Shown: positions 22,869 to 64,000 of the stretch, one piece after another
Layout: the number at the start of each line of letters is the position of its first letter
Numbering within the stretch: the first letter of the stretch is position 1
NCBI GenBank assembly: GCA_965601925.1
Contig: OZ271854.1
Span: 4,320,001 to 4,384,000 of the forward strand
DNA length: 64,000 nt
Source of the DNA: Alkalispirochaeta sp.
GTDB taxonomy: Bacteria > Spirochaetota > Spirochaetia > DSM-27196 > Alkalispirochaetaceae
Reading direction: 5' to 3'
Translations under genes and position numbers: made by a program
The notes under the pieces: model-generated
What the model was told of the DNA's origin: nothing
Database searches by the model: none
The model's input: only the letters and a program-made list of their open reading frames with translations

Positions 22869-23768
22869 CTACGCCTCTTTGTAGAGCGGGTGGACTCGCC
22901 TTCGGTACGCCTCGTATCCCTCGCCGGCGTGGTACGATGAGCGTACGAGGGGGCCGGCGTCGCAATGGACAAATCCCTTCTCCAGGGCCCGGTGGCGCAA
23001 CTCGTCGAACTCCTCCGGCATCCAGTACCGCTGGACCGGCAGATGCGTGCGCGAAGGCTGGAGATACTGCCCCACGTTGAGGATCTGAATGTCGTGGCTC
23101 CGTAGATCGTCCATCGCCTCCAACACCTCGTCGCGGCTCTCTCCCAAACCGAGCATCAAACTGGACTTGGTTACCGCCTCCGGAGCGATCTCCCGCGCCG
23201 TCTTCAAGACCCGCAATGATCGGTCGTAGTCGCTGCGGGAGCGCACTTGGGGCGTCAATCGACGTACCGTCTCCAGGTTGTGACTCATAATCTCGGGCTC
23301 GGCGGCCATAACGGTCTCGACCGCCGTACGATTACCCATGAAGTCACTGGTCAGGACCTCCACCGTACACTCGTCCGTCGCGCCGTGAATCGCGCGCACC
23401 GTGTTGGCCATTACCTCCGCGCCGCCGTCTTTGAGGTCGTCGCGATTGACCATGGTAATCACCACGTGACGCAGATCCATGGCCGCCACCGAATCGGCAA
23501 CCCGCTTGGGCTCGCCGAGGTCGAGCATACTGGGGAGGCCGGTTTTCACGGCGCAGAAGCGACAGCGTCTCGTACACGTGTCGCCCAGGATCATGAATGT
23601 TGCGGTGCGATGCTGTCCCCAACACTCGTGAATATTGGGGCACCGAGCCTCTTCGCACACCGTATTGAGACGCTCCTCCCGCATGAGCTTCTTGAGGTAG
23701 CGAAAGTTATCGTTCGTGTTCAACTGTATCTTGAGCCAGTCCGGCTTCCTCGTTATCTGCGTTGCCAT
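22869..23768 (-). CDS. lipA: Lipoyl synthase
   Basis: [20 protein letters not shown] and RSSY motifs. Confidence 0.97.
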
Positions 23769-42109: not shown

Positions 42110-43399
42110 ATGCTCGACTTGAAATATGTGCGTGAAAACCCCGACGTAATCCGCGAGAACGTCCGCCGCCGTAACGTTGCGGCCGATGTCGATCGCGTCA
42201 TCGATCTCTACGACCGACGTCTCGAGGCGATCAAATCGGTTGAGGCCCTCAGGGCGGCGCGTAACGAGAACGCACGCTCGATGAAACAAAAACTCTCCGA
42301 CGAGGAACGGTCGCGCTACGTGGAGGACGGTAAGCGTATCAAGAGCGACATCGCGGCGAAGGAGGAAGAGCTCCGTGCCGTCGAGACGGCGCTCAAAGAG
42401 GCGGCTGAGGCTCTGCCCAATCTGACCCATCCCGACACGCCGGTTGGGAACGACGAGACGGCCAATCGGGAGCTCGAGATCGTCGGCACCGTGCCGCAAT
42501 TCTCCTTTGCCCCGCGCGACCACCTTGACTTGGGACAGTCGCTCGATGTGGTCGACTTTCAACACGCGGCAACCGTGTCGGGGGCGAAGTTTTACTACCT
42601 GCGCAATCAGGGCGTCTATCTCGAGTTGGCTTTGGTCCGATTTGCGCTCGACATCCTTGCCGAGCGCGGGTTTACACCGATGATCACGCCGGACATCGCC
42701 CGAACGGACGTCGTCTCCAATATCGGATTCAACCCCAGAGGTCCGGAATCGAACATCTATAACATCGAGGGTGAAGAGACCAGTCTCGTCGGTACGGCGG
42801 AGATCACCCTCGGAGGATACTACGCCGGCCACACGTTGGACCGCGCGGAACTTCCGATCCGAATGGCCGGCCTGTCACATTGCTTTCGACGCGAGGCGGG
42901 TTCGGCGGGTCAGTTCTCGCGCGGTTTGTATCGAGTGCACCAGTTCACAAAGGTCGAGATGTTCATCGTCGCCCATCCCGATCAATCGGAGGCGCTCCAC
43001 GACGAGATGCTCACCATCGAAAAGGAAATCTTTTCTCGTCTGGAGATTCCGTTTCGTGTGCTCGATATCTGCACAGGCGACCTCGGCGGCCCGGCCTACA
43101 GAAAGTTCGATCTCGAGGCGTGGATGCCCGGTCGCGGCGAGGGCGGAGAGTGGGGAGAAATCACCAGCACTTCAAATTGCACCGACTTCCAGAGCCGCCG
43201 CTTGAACATACGGTACTCGGGAACTACCGACGAGGGCAAAAAAGAAAAGGGATACGCGCATCTGCTCAACGGGACGGCGGTCGCCGTCTCACGAGCGATC
43301 ATCGCGATCCTCGAAAACTTTCAACGGGAAGACGGCTCGGTCGTCATTCCGAGCGCACTTCAGCCCTATACCGGATTCGAGAGGATCCACCGGGAATGA
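42110..43399 (+). CDS. serS: Seryl-tRNA synthetase
   Basis: MLDLKYVR, GTAE, CFRREAG, RVHQFTKVE, SNCTDFQSRR and LNGT motifs. Confidence 0.97.
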   Translation: MLDLKYVRENPDVIRENVRRRNVAADVDRVIDLYDRRLEAIKSVEALRAARNENARSMKQKLSDEERSRYVEDGKRIKSDIAAKEEELRAVETALKEAAEALPNLTHPDTPVGNDETANRELEIVGTVPQFSFAPRDHLDLGQSLDVVDFQHAATVSGAKFYYLRNQGVYLELALVRFALDILAERGFTPMITPDIARTDVVSNIGFNPRGPESNIYNIEGEETSLVGTAEITLGGYYAGHTLDRAELPIRMAGLSHCFRREAGSAGQFSRGLYRVHQFTKVEMFIVAHPDQSEALHDEMLTIEKEIFSRLEIPFRVLDICTGDLGGPAYRKFDLEAWMPGRGEGGEWGEITSTSNCTDFQSRRLNIRYSGTTDEGKKEKGYAHLLNGTAVAVSRAIIAILENFQREDGSVVIPSALQPYTGFERIHRE

Positions 43400-44523
43400 A
43401 CGTTATGTCGCCGCGCATCGTAGCGGAGATCGGCACCGCCCATGAGGGCGATCGTGAGCGCGCCCGTGCGCTCGTTGAGGCGGCGCGGGAGGCGGGAGCG
43501 GATACGGTGAAGTTTCAGCTCGTCCGTTCGGACGAGATTTTACACCCTCGATCCGGAACGGTTCACCTACCGGGGGGGCACGTCCCGCTCTACGACCGAT
43601 TTCGCGAACTTGAACGCAGCGAAGAGTTCTATACCGACCTTAAACGTATATGCCGCGAGGCCGACATTCGGTTTCTATGCACACCCTTCGGCATCGAGAG
43701 CGCACGGCTTTTGCGCCATATGGAGGTCGAAGAGATCAAGATCGCCTCCCCCGAGCTCAACCATATCCCGCTCCTGCGTGAGGTATCGACCTACCAAAAG
43801 CCGCTCATTTTATCCGTGGGAGTGGCGACCGTAAGCGACATCGACGAGGCGCTGTCGGTGGTACCGTCGAACGCGGTCACCTTGCTACAATGCGTCACCG
43901 CCTATCCGGCGCCCGAGGAGGAGTACAACCTTCGCGTCATCCCGTCGATGCGAGACCTCTTCGGCGTGCCCGTCGGGGTGTCGGACCACTCCCTCGATCC
44001 GGTCATCGTGCCGACGCTGGCCACACTCATGGGCGCCTCGATGATCGAAAAACACATCACATTGAGTCGCACCGACAACGGTCTTGACGATCCTATCGCC
44101 TTGGAGCCCGACGACTTTGCGACGATGGCCAGGGAAGTTCGCGACATTACGGAGCGACTCGCCGACGCCGGCGAAAAGGGCTCGATCGAGTATCATCGCG
44201 CACGGCTGACGATTGAGGAGCGCGCAAAGAGTCGACACGGCTCCGCTCGCGTAGAAAAGGTCTTGGGAACCGGTGTGAAGAGGCTTGCTCCCAGTGAGCA
44301 GCGTAACTACGGGTACACCAACCGCAGCATACACGCCCTCTCGAATCTCTCGGTAGGGCGTACGGTGACGAAGAAAAACACCGCAATCCTGCGCTCCGAG
44401 AAAAATCTTTCACCGGGCCTCCATCCTCGCTACTGGGACTCGATTCTCGGAGCCCGTCTCACGCGCGACATTGCGGCCGGCGACGGCGTTACCTGGGACC
44501 ATCTCCTTTCACGCGACCAATGA
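43396..44523 (+). CDS. NeuB/SpsE-family N-acetylneuraminate synthase-like protein with C-terminal SAF domain
   Basis: AEIG..H.G, VKFQ, KIAS, CVTAYP, GVSDH and IEKH motifs. Confidence 0.85.
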   Translation: MNVMSPRIVAEIGTAHEGDRERARALVEAAREAGADTVKFQLVRSDEILHPRSGTVHLPGGHVPLYDRFRELERSEEFYTDLKRICREADIRFLCTPFGIESARLLRHMEVEEIKIASPELNHIPLLREVSTYQKPLILSVGVATVSDIDEALSVVPSNAVTLLQCVTAYPAPEEEYNLRVIPSMRDLFGVPVGVSDHSLDPVIVPTLATLMGASMIEKHITLSRTDNGLDDPIALEPDDFATMAREVRDITERLADAGEKGSIEYHRARLTIEERAKSRHGSARVEKVLGTGVKRLAPSEQRNYGYTNRSIHALSNLSVGRTVTKKNTAILRSEKNLSPGLHPRYWDSILGARLTRDIAAGDGVTWDHLLSRDQ

Positions 44524-44704: not shown

Positions 44705-47419
44705 TCAGGCGACAAATTTCCGTAGTACCGTATGGAGAATTCCTCCGTTGCGGTAGTACTGCACCTCTACCGGCGTGTCGATTCGACACAACGTCGTGAA
44801 GCTGAACGTCGAGCCGTCCTCCTTCACGACATCCACGCGTACCTCTTGGCGCGGTTGCACCCCGTCGTCGATATGCACGGTAAAGGACTCGAAACCGGTC
44901 AGCCCTAAGCCGGTCCGCGATTCGCCGTTCGTGAACTCGAGCGGAAGGATACCCATACCGACCAAATTGCTCCGGTGGATTCGCTCGAAGCTCTCTGCAA
45001 TTACGACCTTGATCCCGAGGAGTTGCACACCCTTCGCGGCCCAGTCGCGAGACGAACCCATTCCGTAGTCCTTACCGGCGAGCACGACGGTCGGAATACC
45101 CTCAGCCTTGTAGCGCTCCGCAGCGTCGAAGATGCTTACCACCTCACGCGTCGGGGTATAGGTCGTCACCGATCCCTCGGTGCCCGGGGCGAGGAGATTA
45201 CGAAATCGAATGTTCGCGAAGGTGCCGCGCGTCATGATACGATCGTTTCCGCGACGGCTACCGTAGGAGTTGAAGTCTTTGCGCTCTACGCCCCTGTCGA
45301 CGAGAAACTCGCCGGCGGGACTATCGGGTGCGATCGCTCCCGCGGGGCTTATGTGGTCGGTCGTAATGCTGTCCCCGGCGACGACGAGAACCCGCGCGTC
45401 CTTGATCGGCTGAATCGCACGTACATCGAGCCCCATGTCCGTGAAAAACGGCGGTTCCTGAATGTAATTCGAGTCGGCGTTCCAGTCGTACAACGCCGAG
45501 CCGTCGGAGGGAATAGCGTTCCACTCCGGGTTCGAGTCCTCCAACCCGGCATAACTCTCGATGAATGCGTCGCGGTCGAGGGCCTGCCGCACGAACTCAC
45601 CCAGCTCTTCGGTAGTCGGCCAAATCTCCTTGAGGTAGACCGGCTTGCCCCCTTTATCGACGCCGATGGGATCGTTCGCAAGATCGATATCGACGGTGCC
45701 GGCGATCGCATACGCCACGACCAACGGCGGAGACATGAGAAAATTGGCCTTTGTATGCGGATTGATGCGCCCCTCGAAGTTGCGGTTGCCGGATAATACA
45801 CCGGCGACGACCAAGTCGCCCTCCTCGATCCCCTTCGCTACGTTTTCCGGAACGGGCCCGCTGTTACCGATACAGGTCGTGCAGCCGTACCCGACCAGAT
45901 AGAACCCCATCTGCTCGAGATAGGTCATAAGCCCGGTGCGTTGCAGATACTCGGTAACGACCATCGACCCCGGTGCAAAGCTCGTCTTGATCCACGGCTG
46001 TCGGTGCAGTCCGCGCTCGACGGCGTTTTTTGCGAGCAGTCCTGCGCCCAGGAGCACGCTCGGGTTACTCGTGTTGGTACAACTGGTGATGGCGGCAATA
46101 ACCACGTCGCCGTGGGTGAGCTCCTTGGTACCACCGTCGTCCAGCGTGATGGTCGCGTGTCGTGCCTTCTCTTCATCGCTCAACGCATACCCGCGCTCCT
46201 CTACGGGAGCCGCCAGCCCGCGCTGCCACTCGTCCTTTACATCGTTGATCGTAATACGGTCCTGCGGACGCTTGGGACCGGCGATGCTCGCCTCGACACT
46301 TCCGAGATCCAACTCAAGGACGGCCTCAAACTCCGGGTCGGGCGTATCGTCGGTACGGAATACCTCTTGCTCGCGGGCGTACTGTTCGACCGTCTTGATC
46401 AACTCCTCGCTTCGACCGGTCGACCACATATAATCGAGGGTCTGTTGATCGATGGGAAAGTAGCCGACCGTGGCACCGTACTCGGGCGCCATATTCGAGA
46501 TTGTGGCGCGGTCTGGAACGGTCATATGGCTGAGGCCGGTACCGAAGAACTCCACGAACTTGCCGACCACGCCGTGTTCGCGCAGCATTTGCGTTATTCG
46601 CAAGACGAGGTCGGTGGCGGTGATGCCGGGCCTGAGTGCGCCGGTAAGCTTGACCCCGACGACGTCGGGCGCGAGAACGTAGATCGGTTGTCCAAGCATG
46701 GCGGCCTCGGCTTCGATACCGCCGACGCCCCATCCGACGACGCCCAGGCCGTTTATCATCGGCGTATGGCTGTCGGTACCGACCAAAGAATCGAAGTATG
46801 CGACGGTACGTCCGTCGACCTCGCGCACCTGTACACACTTTCCAAGGTATTCAAGGTTCACCTGGTGGCAGATACCGCTGGCCGGCGGTACCACGGAGAA
46901 GTTCTCGAACGCACCCTGTCCCCAACGTAAAAACTCATATCGCTCTCGATTCCGTTGGAACTCGATCTCGGCGTTACGCTTGAGCGCATCGGAGCTGTTA
47001 AAAAAGTCTACCTGTACCGAGTGATCGATGACGAGATCGACGGGTAACTGCGGATTGATCTTCGCCGGATCGCCTCCGAGGCGCGCCATGGCGCTGCGCA
47101 TCGCGGCGAGGTCGACGACACTGGGTACCCCGGTGAAATCCTGTAGCAGCACCCGCGCCGGCTTAAAAGGTAGTTCGACCTTCTTCGGTGAGGCGGGATT
47201 GTACCGACCGATCGACTCCACGTGGTTTCGGGTGACTTCGTATCCGTCTTCGTTTCTGAGAATCGATTCGAGGAGTACACGAATCGAGAAGGGGAATCGT
47301 CGTATCTGTTCGAACCCCTGTTCGGAAAATGCCCGCAGGCTGAAGTACTCCACCTCGCCGAGAGGCGTCGCCATGTGCTTCTTAACGCCGAAGCTGTTTT
47401 CTCGAGACACGTCGCTCAT
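44705..47419 (-). CDS. acnA: Aconitate hydratase A
   Basis: [36 protein letters not shown] and [10 protein letters not shown] motifs; AAGGAG SD. Confidence 0.97.
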
Positions 47420-47509: not shown

Positions 47510-50500
47510 ATGGAAACAGGCACGATCAAAAATACCGGCACACTCCGACAACTATACCGAACGATGGTTACCGCTCGACAGATGGACCAGATCGAGCAGA
47601 GTTACACGTCTCGCGGAGAGGCTTTTTTCCACGTTTCGGGCGCCGGTCACGAAGGATCGATAGCACTCTATCCTCACCTGAAGGACGGGGATTGGCTTCA
47701 CTGTCACTATCGCGACAAAGCGCTCATGTTGGCTCGCGGCATCTCGCCGGAGATGTTTTTCATGAGCCTGTTCAATAAAGACGCCTCCCACTCCCGCGGA
47801 CGCCAGATGAACGCCCATATGAGTGCACCTGAGTTGAACATTCTCAGCATCGTGGGACCGGTGGGCAACAGCGCGCTTCAGGCCGCCGGCGTCGCCGAGA
47901 TGGTCAAGGATTACGCCGATAATCCGATCGTGCTGTGCTCGATCGGCGAGGGCACGACGCAGGAGAGCGAGGTCATAGAGGCGATCGGACATGCGGTGCG
48001 CGAACAGCTGCCCGTCCTCTTTTTGGTTCAAGACAACTCGTTTGCCATCTCTACAAAGACGCGAGGACAAACCTTTTACTCACGGCCGTCGGGCGAGGCG
48101 GACTCGTTCTACGGCATTCCCATTACGAGGATCGACGGCCGCCACGTTACGGCGGCCATCGATGCCTTCGGTCCGGTCGTCGAGACGATACGCCGCGATC
48201 GCACCCCGCAGATCATCGTTTTTTCGGTAGAACGCTTGCACAACCATACCAACGCCGACGACCAGCGCGCCTATCGCAGCGCCGACGAGATCGAGGAGGT
48301 TGCCCGCACGAGCGATCCGATAGCCCTCCTTCGAGGCGAGTTGACCGAGGCCGGTATATCGGCCGACGAGTTGGACAAAGAAGCGGAGGAGATTCGCTCC
48401 GATCTTATAGAGAGTGCCCGAGCCGCCCAAATGAGCGCCGAACCCGAGCCCTTTCCCGACGCCAAAGCACCGCTACCCGCCCGGCTGACCTCACCCGAGA
48501 GCGAGTATACCGGCTCCGGCGAGGGTGAGCTTGTAATGCTGGAGGCGATCCGGGAGGTCCTTGACGCACGTTTGGCCGGGGACGAACGGGTGACGCTCTT
48601 CGGCGAGGATCTGGAGGATCCCAAGGGAGACGTCTTCGGCATCACCCGCGGTTTGACCCAGAAGTACGGTCGACGGGTGCGCAACAGCCCTTTGAGCGAG
48701 TCGTTGATTCTCGGCGTCTCCATCGGACGCGCCTTAGCCGGCGGACGTCCGGTCGCCTTTTTGCAATTTGCCGATTTCCTGCCTATCGCCTACAACCAGA
48801 TTTTTGCCGAATTGGGGAGCATGTTCTGGCGAACCGACGGGAAATGGAGCGTCCCGGTAATCGTCATGATCACCGCCGGGGGGTACCGTCCGGGCCTCGG
48901 ACCCTTCCACGCTTCCACGTTGGAGGCGCTGGTTGCCCACACACCGGGAGTCGACGTATTCATGCCCTCCAGCGCCGGTGACGCGGCGGGATTGTTGAAC
49001 GCCGCCTTTGAGTCCGAGCGCCCGACGATTTTCTTTTACCCCAAAAATCAACTCAACGACCGATCACGCGCTACCAGCCGCGATACGGCAAAACAGCTCG
49101 TACCCATCGGCCGCGCGCGCCACGTGACGCGCGGTGAAGACATCACCATCGTCGGCTACGGCAACACGATTCCTCTGGCCGCCCGGGCGGCCGCCGTACT
49201 GGAAACGCACGGCGTCGGCGTCGACCTCATCGATCTACGCAGCCTCGTGCCCTGGGATGTGGATACCGTGGTGGCCAGTGTCGAGCGGACCGGCCGTTTG
49301 ATCGTCGCCCACGAAGACAACCATACGGCAGGATTCGGTGCGGAGGTCGTCTCCACCATCGCCGAGAAGAGTCGTCGTCACATTGCGGCGACGCGCGTGA
49401 CGCGGCCGGATACGTATGTGCCGTGTAACTTCGGTAACCAGCTGGAGATTCTCCCGTCGTACAAACGCATTCTCGAATCGGCGGTCGAACTCCTCGGCGG
49501 TTCGATCACGTGGAAAAAGCAAAACGGCGCCGAAACCGGTGTGTTCGATGTAGAGGCGATCGGATCCAGCCCGTCGGACGAGTCGATCTCGATGGTGGAG
49601 TGGATGGTCAAGCCGGGCGATTCGGTGGACGAGGGAGATCTCTTAGCCGAAGTCGAAGCTGACAAAGCGGCCGCGGAGCTGAAATCGCCGGTAGGCGGTA
49701 CGATAGCGGAGCTCTTGATACAGGTCGGAGACTCGGTCCCGGTCGGCACGCCGATCGCGCGGATCGACACCGGTGATAGACCGGTGCACGTCAAACCGCT
49801 GACGCGCGAGGATCCGGGCGAGCCGATCATTACCGGACTTGCGGACTTCGGTGCGGCGGACGTCCACTCGACGGCGGCGCACCAAGGCGGCACCAGACGG
49901 AGCATCGCGCCGGCGGCCACCGACACGTGTTTGATCGCCGGCGTCGCCTCGCGACGCGGTTCACGGATCGTCGAGAACCGGGAAATCGCCGACATGTCTT
50001 CCGATTGGGATGGAGAGGAAATCAAAAAGCGGATCGGTATCGAACGCCGCCCGTGGGTCGCCGACGGAGAGGATACGTTGAGTCTCGCCGTCGATGCGTC
50101 GCGCTCGGTTCTCTCCCAAACCGGCGTATCGCCGCAGGAGATCGACATGGTCATCTTCTCGACCGGTACGCCGACCAGCATCACCCCCTCGATGGCGACC
50201 CTCCTACAGTTCGAGCTCTCGAAAGACGGACCCGAGGTCCGTGGTACCGCGTACGATGTAAACGCGGCGTGCTCGGGATACATATACGGTCTCCAGCAGG
50301 CGTGGGATTTCTTGAGTAACTCCCCGACCGCAAAGGTACTCCTCGTAACGAGTGAGGTATTGAGCCCGCGTCTCAACATGCAGGATTTCGGTACCGCACC
50401 GATCTTCGGGGATGCCGCGACGGCCACCATTCTGGGCGGTGCCGACTCGTCCGTCGCCTCGCGCTCCCTCGCGTCCGTCGACCGCCCGGTAACGTCGGCG

Positions 50501-50890
50501 AAGGGAGAATCCGGCGATTCCCTGCGAGTACCGCAGGATGAGAGCCTTCCCATCACAATGGACGGGCCGGCGGTATATCTGGAAGCGATCAAGGCGATGA
50601 TGGATACCCTCACGTCGAGCGCCGAGGCGGCCGAAGTGAGGCCCGACGGGTTGGACCTGTACATCCCCCATCAAGCCAACCAGCGCATTATTAACGCTAT
50701 ACGCCAGCGCATGAAGCTCGCGCCCGAAAAGATGTACAGCAACATCGCCGATAACGGCAACACCTCATCGAGTACCATTCCGTTGTGTCTCGACGAGCTC
50801 CTGCCGACGCGAAAGCCGGATCAGCTGTGGGGTCTCACGGCCTTCGGTGGCGGATTCACCTTCGGTGCGGCGATCGTGAGAACGCGCTAA
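47510..50890 (+). CDS. Fusion of 2-oxoacid dehydrogenase E1alpha, E1beta, a lipoyl domain and 3-oxoacyl-ACP synthase III (FabH-like), 1126 aa
   Basis: GGAGG SD. E1a: GHE, HYRD, GEG..24..DN TPP motif, HTNADD. E1b: FGED, PLSE, QFADF, GPFH, DLRSL.P.D. Lipoyl: EVEADKA. KAS III: AACSG, FGD, HQAN, GNTSS, FGGG. Confidence 0.92.
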
Positions 50891-60760: not shown

Positions 60761-62152
60761 TCAAATGTGAATCGCCCATCCCTCGGCGGCGCGAGCCCCT
60801 TCCATAACCGCCTCCGAGAGAGTCGGATGCGCGTGGATCATACTCGCGAGATCCTCGGGTAAGAGCTCGGCCTTCTTGGCGAGCAGTAACTCGTGGATGA
60901 GCTCGGTCGCGTTGTATCCGGCGACGTGAGCCCCCAGAATTTCCCGCGTATCCTTGCGAAATACGATCTTCACTACTCCGTCGCTCTTCTCGACCGCTAC
61001 CGATTTACCGGCGCCCCGATACGGGAAGATCGCCGTTTCGAAGTCGAGCCCCGCTTCGCGTGCACGCTTCTCGGTAAAGCCGAAGCTCCCGATCTCCGGC
61101 TCGCAGTAGACCGCCGAGGGAATCGTATCGGGATCAACGTGGGTCTCGGGATGGTGCCCCGCCATGTGTTCGACGGCGATCTCGCCCTCCTTACTCGCGA
61201 CGTGGGCGAGAAGCGGAGACGGTGTGACGTCACCGATAGCGTAGATGCCCTGCGTGCTCGTCTGATAGTAGTCTCCGAGGACGACGAACCCGCGGTCGGT
61301 CTTCACACCGACGTTCTCGAGACCCAACTCCTCGGTGTTGGGCGCGCGTCCGACGGCGACCAGGAGTAGATCGGCCTTGAGGGACTCTTCGGCTCCGTCG
61401 CTCTTCTCGACGACGAGGGTGACGCCGCGCCCCTTCGTGTCGACGCTTTTGGCCTTTGTTCCGGTCATGGTGGTGACGCCGTAGCGCTTAAACGCTTTCG
61501 CGATAACGTCGACCGCATCGGCATCTTCGATCGGAAGCAGTTGGTCGAGCATCTCAATGACGGTGACATCCACACCGAAGGAACTCATTACGTAGGCAAA
61601 CTCCATCCCGATTGCACCGGCGCCTAGAATGAGGAGCTTCTTCGGGAGTTTCGTGAGACTCAGCATGTCGCGGGACGAGAGAATCTTCTTCCCGTCGAAC
61701 TCGAAACCCGGTATCTCGCGGGGACGCGAACCGGTTGCGATCAGAATATTCTTAGCGGTTACCGTCTGCTTTTCGTCGATCGACACCTCGTGGGGGCCGG
61801 CGAAGCGCGCCGTTCCGTCGATATAGGCTATTTTGTTTTTCTTCAGCAGAGCCTGCACGCCCTTCGAGAGCTTGTTTGCCGCGTCACGCGACTTTTGGTG
61901 CACCTTACCGTAATCCAACCCGGCCGTGTCGACCGCTATGCCGATTTTGCGCATGTCGTCGGCGTAATGCGCGATCTCGGCCTGATGGATCAACGCCTTG
62001 GAAGGGATACATCCCCAGTTGAGGCACACCCCACCGGGCGCCTCTTTTTCTACGACCGCGGCGCTCATTCCCAGCTGGGAGGCGCGAATCGCGGCGACAT
62101 AGCCGCCCGGTCCCGCGCCGATCACCAGCAGATCATAATCGTAATTCGCCAC
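60761..62152 (-). CDS. lpdA: Dihydrolipoyl dehydrogenase (E3)
   Basis: GAGPGG, GGVCLNWGCIPSK and HAHPTLSE motifs. Confidence 0.97.
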   Translation of the reverse strand: MANYDYDLLVIGAGPGGYVAAIRASQLGMSAAVVEKEAPGGVCLNWGCIPSKALIHQAEIAHYADDMRKIGIAVDTAGLDYGKVHQKSRDAANKLSKGVQALLKKNKIAYIDGTARFAGPHEVSIDEKQTVTAKNILIATGSRPREIPGFEFDGKKILSSRDMLSLTKLPKKLLILGAGAIGMEFAYVMSSFGVDVTVIEMLDQLLPIEDADAVDVIAKAFKRYGVTTMTGTKAKSVDTKGRGVTLVVEKSDGAEESLKADLLLVAVGRAPNTEELGLENVGVKTDRGFVVLGDYYQTSTQGIYAIGDVTPSPLLAHVASKEGEIAVEHMAGHHPETHVDPDTIPSAVYCEPEIGSFGFTEKRAREAGLDFETAIFPYRGAGKSVAVEKSDGVVKIVFRKDTREILGAHVAGYNATELIHELLLAKKAELLPEDLASMIHAHPTLSEAVMEGARAAEGWAIHI

Positions 62153-62161
62153 ATAAACCTC

Positions 62162-63463
62162 CTAAAAAATCATCCGTACCGGCTGTTCCATCATCTGCTG
62201 TAGATCGTGGATGAACCGTCCGCCGGCTGCGCCGTCGATCACTCTGTGGTCGCACGAGAGCGTCATCTTCATGATGGTACCAACGCCGAGCGCGCCGTCG
62301 GGCTTTACGACCGGTGTCGCCTTACTCGCTCCTAAGGCCAGGATCGCCGAGCCGGGAGGATTGATGATCGCGGTGAACTCCTCCACCCCGAACGACCCGA
62401 GGTTGCTGATGGTGAAGGTCGCGCCGTTATACTCTTCCGGCTTAAGCTTCCCTTCTCCCGTCTTTCGAATGAGCTCCTGCAGATCGCCGTCGATATCGAC
62501 GATACCGCGGTTTCCACAGTCGCGCACTACGGGAATCATAAGCCCGTTCCCCAGATCGACGGCCAACCCGATGTCGATACTCCCGTACTGCACGATCTTG
62601 TCGTCCTGCCACGACGAGTTAACCACGGGATGACGCTTCAGCGCTTCGGCCGCAAACTTGATGAAAAAGGCGTTGAGGGAAACTTTCGTCGGCAGCGCTT
62701 CGTTCAACATCTTGCGAGCCGCAATGATGTTCGTCATTTCTACCGACGTCTTCACGTAGAAGTGGGGGGCGCTGAACTTACTCGCTACCACGCGGCGCGC
62801 AATGGCGACTCGTTTTCCCGCAACGGGAATGACCTCATCCTCACGTGCCGGCGACGAGACGAATGCCCCGGACGCGGGCGAAGCGGCGACCGCTGCGGAG
62901 GAGACGCCGCGGAAGCTTTCGATATCGCGCTTCACGATACGTCCCGCCGGGCCGCTCCCTTTTACCAGCGCGAGATTGATATTACGCTCCGCCGCTAACT
63001 TGACCGCCAAGGGGCTCGCCTTTACGTGAGTGCCGGTCGCTGTTTGGGCGACGCGCGCCGGCTCGCTCGGGGTACGGTCGGCGGCCGGCGCCTCTTCTCG
63101 CGGCGGCGCCTCGACGGCGGGGGGAGGCGTCTCCGGCGGCGCTTCCGGCGCCGGAACGGCAGCTGAGGATGGCCCACCCGAGCCCTCGTCCGCGATCTCT
63201 TTCTCGATCGCCGCAAGGTCTTCGCCCTTCTCGCCGAAAATCGCAATCGTCTGTCCGACTCTGGCGTTACCGCCTTCGCCGACGACGATCTTTACGATCG
63301 TGCCGTCTTGCGGCGATTCATAATCCATAGAGGCTTTATCGGTCTCGACCTCACACAGTACGTCGCCCGCGGAGACCTCGTCACCCTCTTTGACGTTCCA
63401 ACTGGTTATCGTGCCCTCCTCCATCGTGGGGGAGAGGGCGGTCATCGGTATCTTTTCAGCCAT
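62162..63463 (-). CDS. pdhC: Dihydrolipoamide acetyltransferase (PDH E2)
   Basis: Lipoyl EVETDKA, Pro/Ala linker, E3-binding ASPLA...GSGPAGRI, catalytic DHRVIDGA. Confidence 0.94.
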   Translation of the reverse strand: MAEKIPMTALSPTMEEGTITSWNVKEGDEVSAGDVLCEVETDKASMDYESPQDGTIVKIVVGEGGNARVGQTIAIFGEKGEDLAAIEKEIADEGSGGPSSAAVPAPEAPPETPPPAVEAPPREEAPAADRTPSEPARVAQTATGTHVKASPLAVKLAAERNINLALVKGSGPAGRIVKRDIESFRGVSSAAVAASPASGAFVSSPAREDEVIPVAGKRVAIARRVVASKFSAPHFYVKTSVEMTNIIAARKMLNEALPTKVSLNAFFIKFAAEALKRHPVVNSSWQDDKIVQYGSIDIGLAVDLGNGLMIPVVRDCGNRGIVDIDGDLQELIRKTGEGKLKPEEYNGATFTISNLGSFGVEEFTAIINPPGSAILALGASKATPVVKPDGALGVGTIMKMTLSCDHRVIDGAAGGRFIHDLQQMMEQPVRMIF

Positions 63464-63467
63464 CGTC

Positions 63468-64000
63468 CTACTCCTTGTAACTCACTCGCTTCGCGGCATG
63501 TACGATTTTTTCTACCGACGGCTGGATCGCCAACTCGAGGGTATGGTTATACGGCATGGGAACGTCTTCGCTGTGTACCAACTCCACGGGCGCATCGAGA
63601 TCGTCAAAACAGTTTTTGCTGATCAACCACGCCACGTGAGAACCGACACTGGCGATCGGCCACGCCTCGTCGACGACGACGGCACGATTGGTTTTGCGCA
63701 CACTGGCGTAGATCGTCTCCTCGTCGATCGGACGCAAGGACCGCAGATCGACGATTTCGGCGTCCAAGCCGATGTCGGCGAGTCGGTCCGCCGCCTCCTC
63801 GACCATGCGCAAAGGCTTGCCGAAACCGATCAAGGAGACATCTTTTCCGGTTCGTTTCACGTCGGCCTTCCCGATCGGAACGAGATACTCCTCCTCGGGC
63901 ACCTCGCCGGTCCAGGCGTACGCGAGTTCGCTCTCGAGAAAGACGACGGGGTTGTCGTCGCGAATCGCCGACTTCAACAGCCCCTTGGCGTCGTACGGCG
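63468..64000 (-). CDS. pdhB: Pyruvate dehydrogenase E1 beta subunit (5'-partial)
   Basis: PYDAKGLLKSAIRDDNPVVFLE, DLRSLRP, FDDLDAPV and DVPMPY motifs. Confidence 0.93.
   Translation of the reverse strand, partial: PYDAKGLLKSAIRDDNPVVFLESELAYAWTGEVPEEEYLVPIGKADVKRTGKDVSLIGFGKPLRMVEEAADRLADIGLDAEIVDLRSLRPIDEETIYASVRKTNRAVVVDEAWPIASVGSHVAWLISKNCFDDLDAPVELVHSEDVPMPYNHTLELAIQPSVEKIVHAAKRVSYKE

Follow-up and report, generated by a model that had tools for sequence, protein, structure and literature searches.

Bacterial fatty acid synthesis is, in the textbook account, primed via acyl-CoA. What, then, donates the acyl group when a KAS III is fused behind a 2-oxoacid decarboxylase and a lipoyl domain? 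The window, a 64,000-nucleotide stretch of an Alkalispirochaeta sp. genome (contig OZ271854.1, positions 4,320,001 to 4,384,000), encodes such a protein in one chain with the order E1α-E1β-lipoyl-KAS III (Table 1). Its ATG start was inferred from homologues; the mechanical ORF opens at a GTG at 47222. In the 1126-residue ORF, Pfam finds neither an E2 catalytic core (PF00198) nor an E3-binding domain, and the AF2 model of the full-length protein has a mean pLDDT of 90.2. Source databases label the fusion proteins '2-oxoisovalerate dehydrogenase E1' or 'transketolase', and ESM Atlas holds only clusters of the same domains with automatic names.

Table 1. Features of the fusion gene and its surroundings, in window coordinates. 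Arrows read from E. coli FabH to the fused protein.
Feature	Position	Strand	Remarks
lipA	22869-23768	-	24 kb from fusion
Fused ORF, E1α-E1β-lipoyl-KAS III	47510..50890	+	1126 aa from ATG
E1α domain, ThDP-dependent 2-oxoacid decarboxylase	47555..48448	+	PF00676, E 2e-42
E1β domains	48536..49444	+	PF02779, PF02780
Lipoyl domain	49538..49774	+	PF00364, E 5e-19
Predicted lipoyl-lysine K719	49664-49666	+	invariant, 109/109 aligned homologues
Linker from lipoyl to KAS, predicted flexible tether	49853..49915	+	pLDDT <50 at residues 782-802
KAS III (FabH-fold) domain	49922..50887	+	PF08545/PF08541; NF006829, 255 vs 249 bits
T28->W833	50006..50008	+	adenine hydrogen-bond site
W32->E837	50018..50020 (GAA)	+	adenine stacking residue lost
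F87->T892	50183..50185	+	predicted acyl pocket larger than acetyl
C112->C921	50270-50272	+	triad Cys
R151->F960	50387..50389 (TTC)	+	adenine stacking residue lost
H244->H1054	50669-50671	+	triad His
R249->R1059	50684..50686	+	basic helix with R1059, R1065, R1067
N274->N1084	50759-50761	+	triad Asn
PDH-type E1β/E2/E3 operon	60761-63998	-	10 kb from fusion

The E1 portion bears on which acyl group is handled. Among solved structures, E1α matches 1UM9 (137 bits), which we take to be the Thermus branched-chain 2-oxoacid dehydrogenase (BCKD), human BCKD (114), PDH (86 and 78) and P. putida BCKD (70). Because the best matches are 1UM9 and human BCKD, and because Phe87 of FabH is replaced by Thr892, we moderately favor a branched-chain 2-oxoacid as the substrate. 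Two results make this assignment less certain: P. putida BCKD scores below PDH, and among plasmid matches of the E1, secondary-metabolite enzymes (a Streptomyces cluster) rank best and outscore BCKD. The Phe87 to Thr change widens the pocket of another FabH, according to the accessible part of PMC12625853.

The linker that follows the lipoyl domain is poorly conserved (column conservation 0.37, versus 0.66-0.79 in the domains). Residues 756-775 (about 49775-49834), directly after the lipoyl domain, contain conserved K762, T765, E767, P769, G770 and P772 and a predicted strand; this segment could be a docking tether of the lipoyl arm. The KAS domain falls below the TIGR00747 cut-off (231.7 versus 292.1 bits), and its model (pLDDT 96) matches S. 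aureus and E. coli FabH in Foldseek with a TM-score of 0.90.

In FabH, the adenine of CoA is contacted by Thr28, Trp32 and Arg151 (PMC4606726, accessible part). We aligned the KAS domain pairwise with E. coli FabH from MG1655. This clamp of the acyl-CoA-primed enzyme is absent here, its three positions being occupied by W833, E837 and F960. The initial annotation had read Trp32 as replaced by Glu and Arg151 by Phe, and the alignment bears out both substitutions. The register is identical in phmmer alignments to 1ZOW, 1HZP and 2AJ9. In the AF2 model, E837 belongs to the Trp32-bearing helix, and the loop before it carries W833 at the Thr28 position. The top solved-FabH match of the domain, 2AJ9, is titled as a W42A,R161A double mutant. 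Retention of the HQANxR motif likewise holds, with R1059 lying beyond the range 49990-50415 that the annotation covered. The Cys-His-Asn triad is intact; its His and Asn are required for decarboxylative condensation in FabH (PMC5724707, accessible part). Elsewhere in the site, S29 becomes D834, K214 becomes L1024 and N210 becomes P1020, and R36 (R841) and N247 (N1057) are kept.

Loss of the clamp extends through the family. Of 7999 proteins scored in a search, 1194 matched at E≤0.001; the 120 top-ranked relatives nearly all have the same domain set, and many come from spirochaetes. Our wide family set comprised 150 representatives of 50% clusters: 59 fused, 70 standalone-looking and 21 unclassifiable fragments. 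In the multiple alignment, Trp32 and Arg151 are both kept in none of the 59 fused domains versus 54 of the 70 standalone-looking KAS III, a count in which ten short proteins from inside the fused clade are treated as standalone. Neither residue is present in 57 fused domains, one has only the Trp and one only the Arg. The fragments have both residues in four cases and neither in eight, and nine do not cover the positions. The same difference separates enzymes within a genome. In 20 genomes with both enzymes, hand-picked across families, the ordinary FabH always keeps T28, W32 and R151, and W32 and R151 are both missing from every one of the 20 fused domains (the Thr28 column is off by one in the fused rows of this alignment and so was left unused there). 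The two standalone FabH proteins of the Alkalispirochaeta genome also retain all three. Finally, 65 full-length fusion loci from GTDB, spanning six phyla, have no W32 and no R151, with one row misaligned.

The residues that replace the clamp are diverse. At position 32, the 121 close rows have Asp in 106, Glu in 7, Gly in 3, Lys in 3 and Ser in 2. Across the 59 fused domains this position is acidic in 42, with a mixture of Asp, Glu and Lys. At position 151, the eight commonest residues of the close relatives (119 rows) exclude Arg, with Pro in 60 of the 121; the wider fused set mixes Phe (30), Pro (14), Tyr, Lys, Ile and Ala, with a single Arg. Position 28 is Trp in 120 of 121 close relatives, in 17 of the 59 fused domains of the wide family, and Arg in another 19. 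The Phe87 position holds Thr or Ser in 48 of 59. The triad shows no such drift (Cys 59/59, His 59/59, Asn 57/58).

To place these changes among all conserved sites, we compared the 58 positions whose conservation reaches 85% or more across 60 standalone proteins, omitting the ten short fused-clade proteins. In the fused set, conservation is under 20% at ten of these positions and down to 2% at each of T28, W32 and R151. The chance that both positions named beforehand would lie among the ten is 45/1653, or about 0.03, calculated by hand. Five of the other seven collapsed positions go mostly to one alternative (G162T, P13G, A278S, G160A and F115Y); replacements are mixed at T28, W32 and R151, and also at G9 and G99. 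C112, H244, N274, F157, M207, G209 and N247 are retained. As judged from these alignments, the mixed substitutes suggest that constraint on the adenine site was relaxed and not that the site was rebuilt; the tunnel and triad are preserved. The proposal that the acyl donor is not CoA is thereby strengthened: the loss is family-wide, Thr28 is gone as well, and the replacements are mixed.

These counts carry less independent weight than their size implies. A FastTree tree built with the clamp columns removed gathers 59 of 60 fused KAS domains on a single branch (support 93), which also contains 10 short and 9 unclassified rows. Since the fused domains form nearly one clade, the counts amount to roughly a single evolutionary event: the adenine clamp probably disappeared just once, when the fusion arose or close to that time. 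The exception, P0243, is a full fusion that keeps W32 and has Pro for R151. Its cluster has nine members of 1141-1147 aa and could be an early branch or a KAS replacement. The ten short 'standalone' proteins that group within the fused clade are probably broken gene calls, since related short forms turn up as pieces of varying length from shared long contigs; P0197 and P0227 may be genuine standalone enzymes. Outside the fusions, the standalone KAS III of PDB 3GWA also has neither W32 nor R151, so a lipoyl donor is not needed for these residues to disappear. For these reasons, calling the substitutions separate residue-level support overstates them, and both the 3GWA-type loss and the W32 of P0243 count against direct lipoyl feeding.

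Could CoA nevertheless be bound in another way? The nearby aromatics, W833 at the Thr28 position and F960 at the Arg151 position, may restack adenine in this one protein, and they count against lipoyl feeding, as do the retained R36 and N247, contacts to the rest of CoA. Across the family, the initial worry that a nearby Trp or the Phe restores stacking is not borne out: W28 occurs together with F151 in 2 of the 59 fused domains. Raw covariation between positions 28 and 151 (Trp with Pro; Arg, Lys or His with Phe or Tyr) gave Fisher p values of about 3e-4 and 5e-4. We do not claim co-evolution because phylogenetic control left only two independent pairs on well-supported branches. Other KAS III enzymes show how far the site can vary. 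In BioZ, the adenosine is turned by about 90 degrees relative to its pose in FabH (PMC12625853, accessible part), and Phe in place of Trp32 is tolerated in the KAS III of A. baumannii (PMC8036411, accessible part). However, CoA-using BioZ retains both Trp and Arg, and the A. baumannii enzyme retains the Arg. No kinetic study of W32/R151 or R249 mutants turned up in our literature search.

A remodelled site, by restacking or by another CoA pose, is one form of the broader alternative that CoA is still donor or product. In its other forms, the acyl group is handed to the E2 of another complex, or the KAS replaces E2 and releases acyl-CoA itself. Genome content bears on these. The fusion gene occurs in 64 of 251 genomes of the window's class, five of them as partial matches. 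An E2 catalytic core is present in all 64 carriers versus 103 of 187 non-carriers (kin are not independent, and the tables were cross-read by hand). We looked for carriers without any E2 core and found none among the 64; handover to a foreign E2 and then CoA may occur in every carrier, which counts against direct lipoyl feeding. The four E2 cores of the Alkalispirochaeta genome each lie in another operon, labeled from ORF reading as PDH-like, OGDH-like and two acetoin dehydrogenase-like. Near-universal W833 in close relatives also suits CoA binding, yet Pro at 151 in half of the same close rows and an acidic residue at position 32 in most fused domains do not. Moreover, fusing the arm to a KAS would make little sense if the acyl group left through a foreign E2. 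Taking both sides together, we regard a continued role for CoA as unlikely.

We instead think it reasonably likely, on residue and domain patterns, that the KAS III is acylated directly by the acyl-dihydrolipoyl arm and then condenses with malonyl-ACP. In the first step, as its domains and conserved residues suggest, E1 would decarboxylate a 2-oxoacid and reductively acylate the lipoyl group on K719; the likeliest substrate is a branched-chain one. The arm would then swing to the KAS tunnel and acylate Cys921, which would be the new step. Malonyl-ACP would enter the same tunnel and be decarboxylated with His1054 and Asn1084, as the intact triad implies, and the resulting 3-ketoacyl-ACP primer would pass to FAS II. 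A shared E3 encoded elsewhere would reoxidize the arm, and ordinary FabH would be kept alongside for acetyl-CoA priming. The clamp would be dispensable because neither lipoyl-lysine nor ACP-pantetheine carries adenine. Besides the loss of the clamp and the invariant K719, this reading is favored by the co-occurrence of lipA, by E2 cores located elsewhere, by retention of FabH, and by the P0156 protein and a desaturase neighbor described below.

lipA is found in 61 of 64 carriers versus 94 of 187 non-carriers (again, kin are not independent), so the lipoyl arm can be lipoylated. Ordinary FabH accompanies the fusion in 61 of 64. In the other three (G011, G022 and G047; 93-96% complete, fragmented), the fused KAS is the only one at E≤1e-25, and W32 and R151 have not been regained; assemblies this incomplete cannot establish that the fused KAS primes alone. 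Beyond the spirochaetes, GTDB loci (507 related stretches, of which 80 were kept) extend the family to Planctomycetota, Armatimonadota, Lentisphaerota, Verrucomicrobiota and Sumerlaeota in addition to Spirochaetota. At a strict cut-off, 12 of 401 genomes of a planctomycete's phylum carry the gene; in one genome of such a phylum, a fatty acid desaturase gene (PF00487; L138:338-1438, +) lies directly before it on the same strand. Across the 80 loci, no ACP, fab gene or biosynthetic cluster recurs beside the fusion, and the absence of an ACP or fab neighbor counts against lipoyl-fed priming. The neighbors that do recur, aconitase, a NeuB-like gene, serS and an SDR, are spirochaete synteny. The NeuB/SAF-domain gene (window 43399-44523, +) sits just downstream of serS, appears in 30 of 81 loci and has no obvious sugar cluster around it. 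The ordinary fabH of the Alkalispirochaeta genome adjoins fabD/fabG/fabF-like genes, and its ACP gene lies at C1:3686371-3686601.

What accepts the acyl group is a separate question. The initial annotation took Arg249 as evidence that malonyl-ACP remains the extender, this Arg being implicated in ACP docking in FabH. That argument is weak. Arg249 is kept in 54 of 59 fused versus 65 of 70 standalone domains, and in 19 of 20 in each paired set; being equally kept, it cannot identify the acceptor. Moreover, the KAS III of A. baumannii lacks this Arg and still functions with ACP (PMC8036411, accessible part). The lipoyl domain resembles ACP in charge (4 basic and 16 acidic residues, versus 5 and 20), its mean net charge being -8.6 over 177 lipoyl domains, and could use the same basic R249 patch. 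ACP-linked condensation is better supported by the intact triad and by P0156, a 1942-aa protein in a singleton cluster whose single chain runs E1α-E1β-lipoyl-KAS-KR-ACP. A ketoreductase placed after the KAS implies a 3-keto product. No second form extended by KR-ACP turned up among longer proteins, metagenome contigs or the 401 genomes of one planctomycete's phylum, and reliance on a single sequence counts against the lipoyl-fed reading. P0156 looks like a PKS module without an AT, has about 250 unannotated residues and comes from an NCBI contig of 63,619 bases. Another variant, P0171 (491 aa), starts with Met at the lipoyl domain and continues through about 100 residues into a fused-clade KAS III. 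We read part of that stretch, which has no Pfam match, as short and E3/E1-binding-like, and the protein as a possible E2-like split form.

The same observations speak to a scheme in which the arm loads Cys921 and the acyl group passes to holo-ACP without condensation, FabF then elongating the acyl-ACP. Loss of the adenine site fits this equally well, CoA-free lipoyl-to-ACP loading is known from QncN/L/M (PMC6335953, accessible part), a lipoyl-E2-ACP-KS loading module occurs in Streptomyces, and most carriers retain ordinary FabH. Such a transacylase, however, would have little use for the conserved condensation residues His244 and Asn274 or for the ketoreductase of P0156, and we consider it quite unlikely. 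Less probable again, in our judgment, is a KAS that is lipoyl-fed and takes another partner, a longer acyl- or 3-ketoacyl-ACP, in head-to-head or specialized-lipid condensation of the MxnB/OleA kind. The patchy distribution, the retained FabH, the Thr or Ser at the Phe87 position, the score below TIGR00747 and the silence of R249 on the acceptor would all agree with it. Against it, ordinary FabH enzymes are the nearest matches among solved structures, those to MxnB, CorB and PqsC types are far weaker, and the gene lacks a recurring biosynthetic cluster.

Each part of the lipoyl-fed KAS III has a known counterpart. The domain shares with FabH enzymes (E. coli 1HNJ-type, S. aureus 1ZOW, B. subtilis FabHA/B) the fold, triad, F157, M207, G209, N247, R36 and R249, but differs in the lost T28, W32 and R151, the changed K214 and N210, the sub-threshold TIGR00747 score and its place behind E1 and lipoyl domains. 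E1α, E1β and a lipoyl domain with its acceptor lysine recall the BCKD complex (E1α2β2/E2/E3), which feeds FabH via acyl-CoA; unlike BCKD or PDH, the fusion is one polypeptide with a KAS III in place of the E2 core and no E3-binding domain. QncN/QncL/QncM, SclQ1-4 and a Streptomyces module likewise combine a ThDP enzyme with a lipoyl arm and deliver the acyl group to ACP (PMC6335953, accessible part), so lipoyl-to-ACP loading via an E2 core is known. Those systems have an E2-type core and sit in natural-product clusters, whereas here a condensing enzyme is the proposed receiver and no cluster recurs. On the Streptomyces xanthii plasmid (L135:8929-20262), a fused E1α-β adjoins a hybrid PKS/NRPS that opens with lipoyl-E2 core-ACP-KS; pabB, prephenate dehydrogenase and chorismate mutase genes lie nearby, and the starter is likely aminophenylpyruvate-derived and loaded without CoA. 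The standalone 3GWA/4EFI type resembles the fused domain in having Trp at 28 (in 3GWA) without W32 and R151, but is unfused; its relative P0247 lies among the standalone proteins on a long branch. In open-licence PMC and bioRxiv, we found no paper on an E1-lipoyl-KAS III fusion or a lipoyl-fed KAS III.

In its fullest form, the proposal is that a multi-phylum, one-chain family primes fatty acid synthesis, probably branched-chain, from 2-oxoacids, with acyl-lipoamide as a third ketosynthase donor class and with the lipoyl domain and ACP alternating on one basic patch after the adenine clamp was discarded. We see the case for and against this broader account as evenly balanced. If true, the thiolase superfamily would gain a new donor class, with a ketosynthase acylated by a lipoyl arm, and carbon from 2-oxoacids would reach lipids by a route shielded from the CoA pool. 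A misannotation in six phyla would also be corrected, and a single gene could serve as a part with which to choose the starter units of fatty acids.

A further difference lies at the Arg36 position. Ordinary spirochaete FabH proteins (L084-L103) have His there in 19 of 20 cases, and the fused domains mostly have Arg (16 of 20). Both FabH copies of the Alkalispirochaeta genome (C1:1951848-1952870 and 4474276-4475265) have His at this position too.
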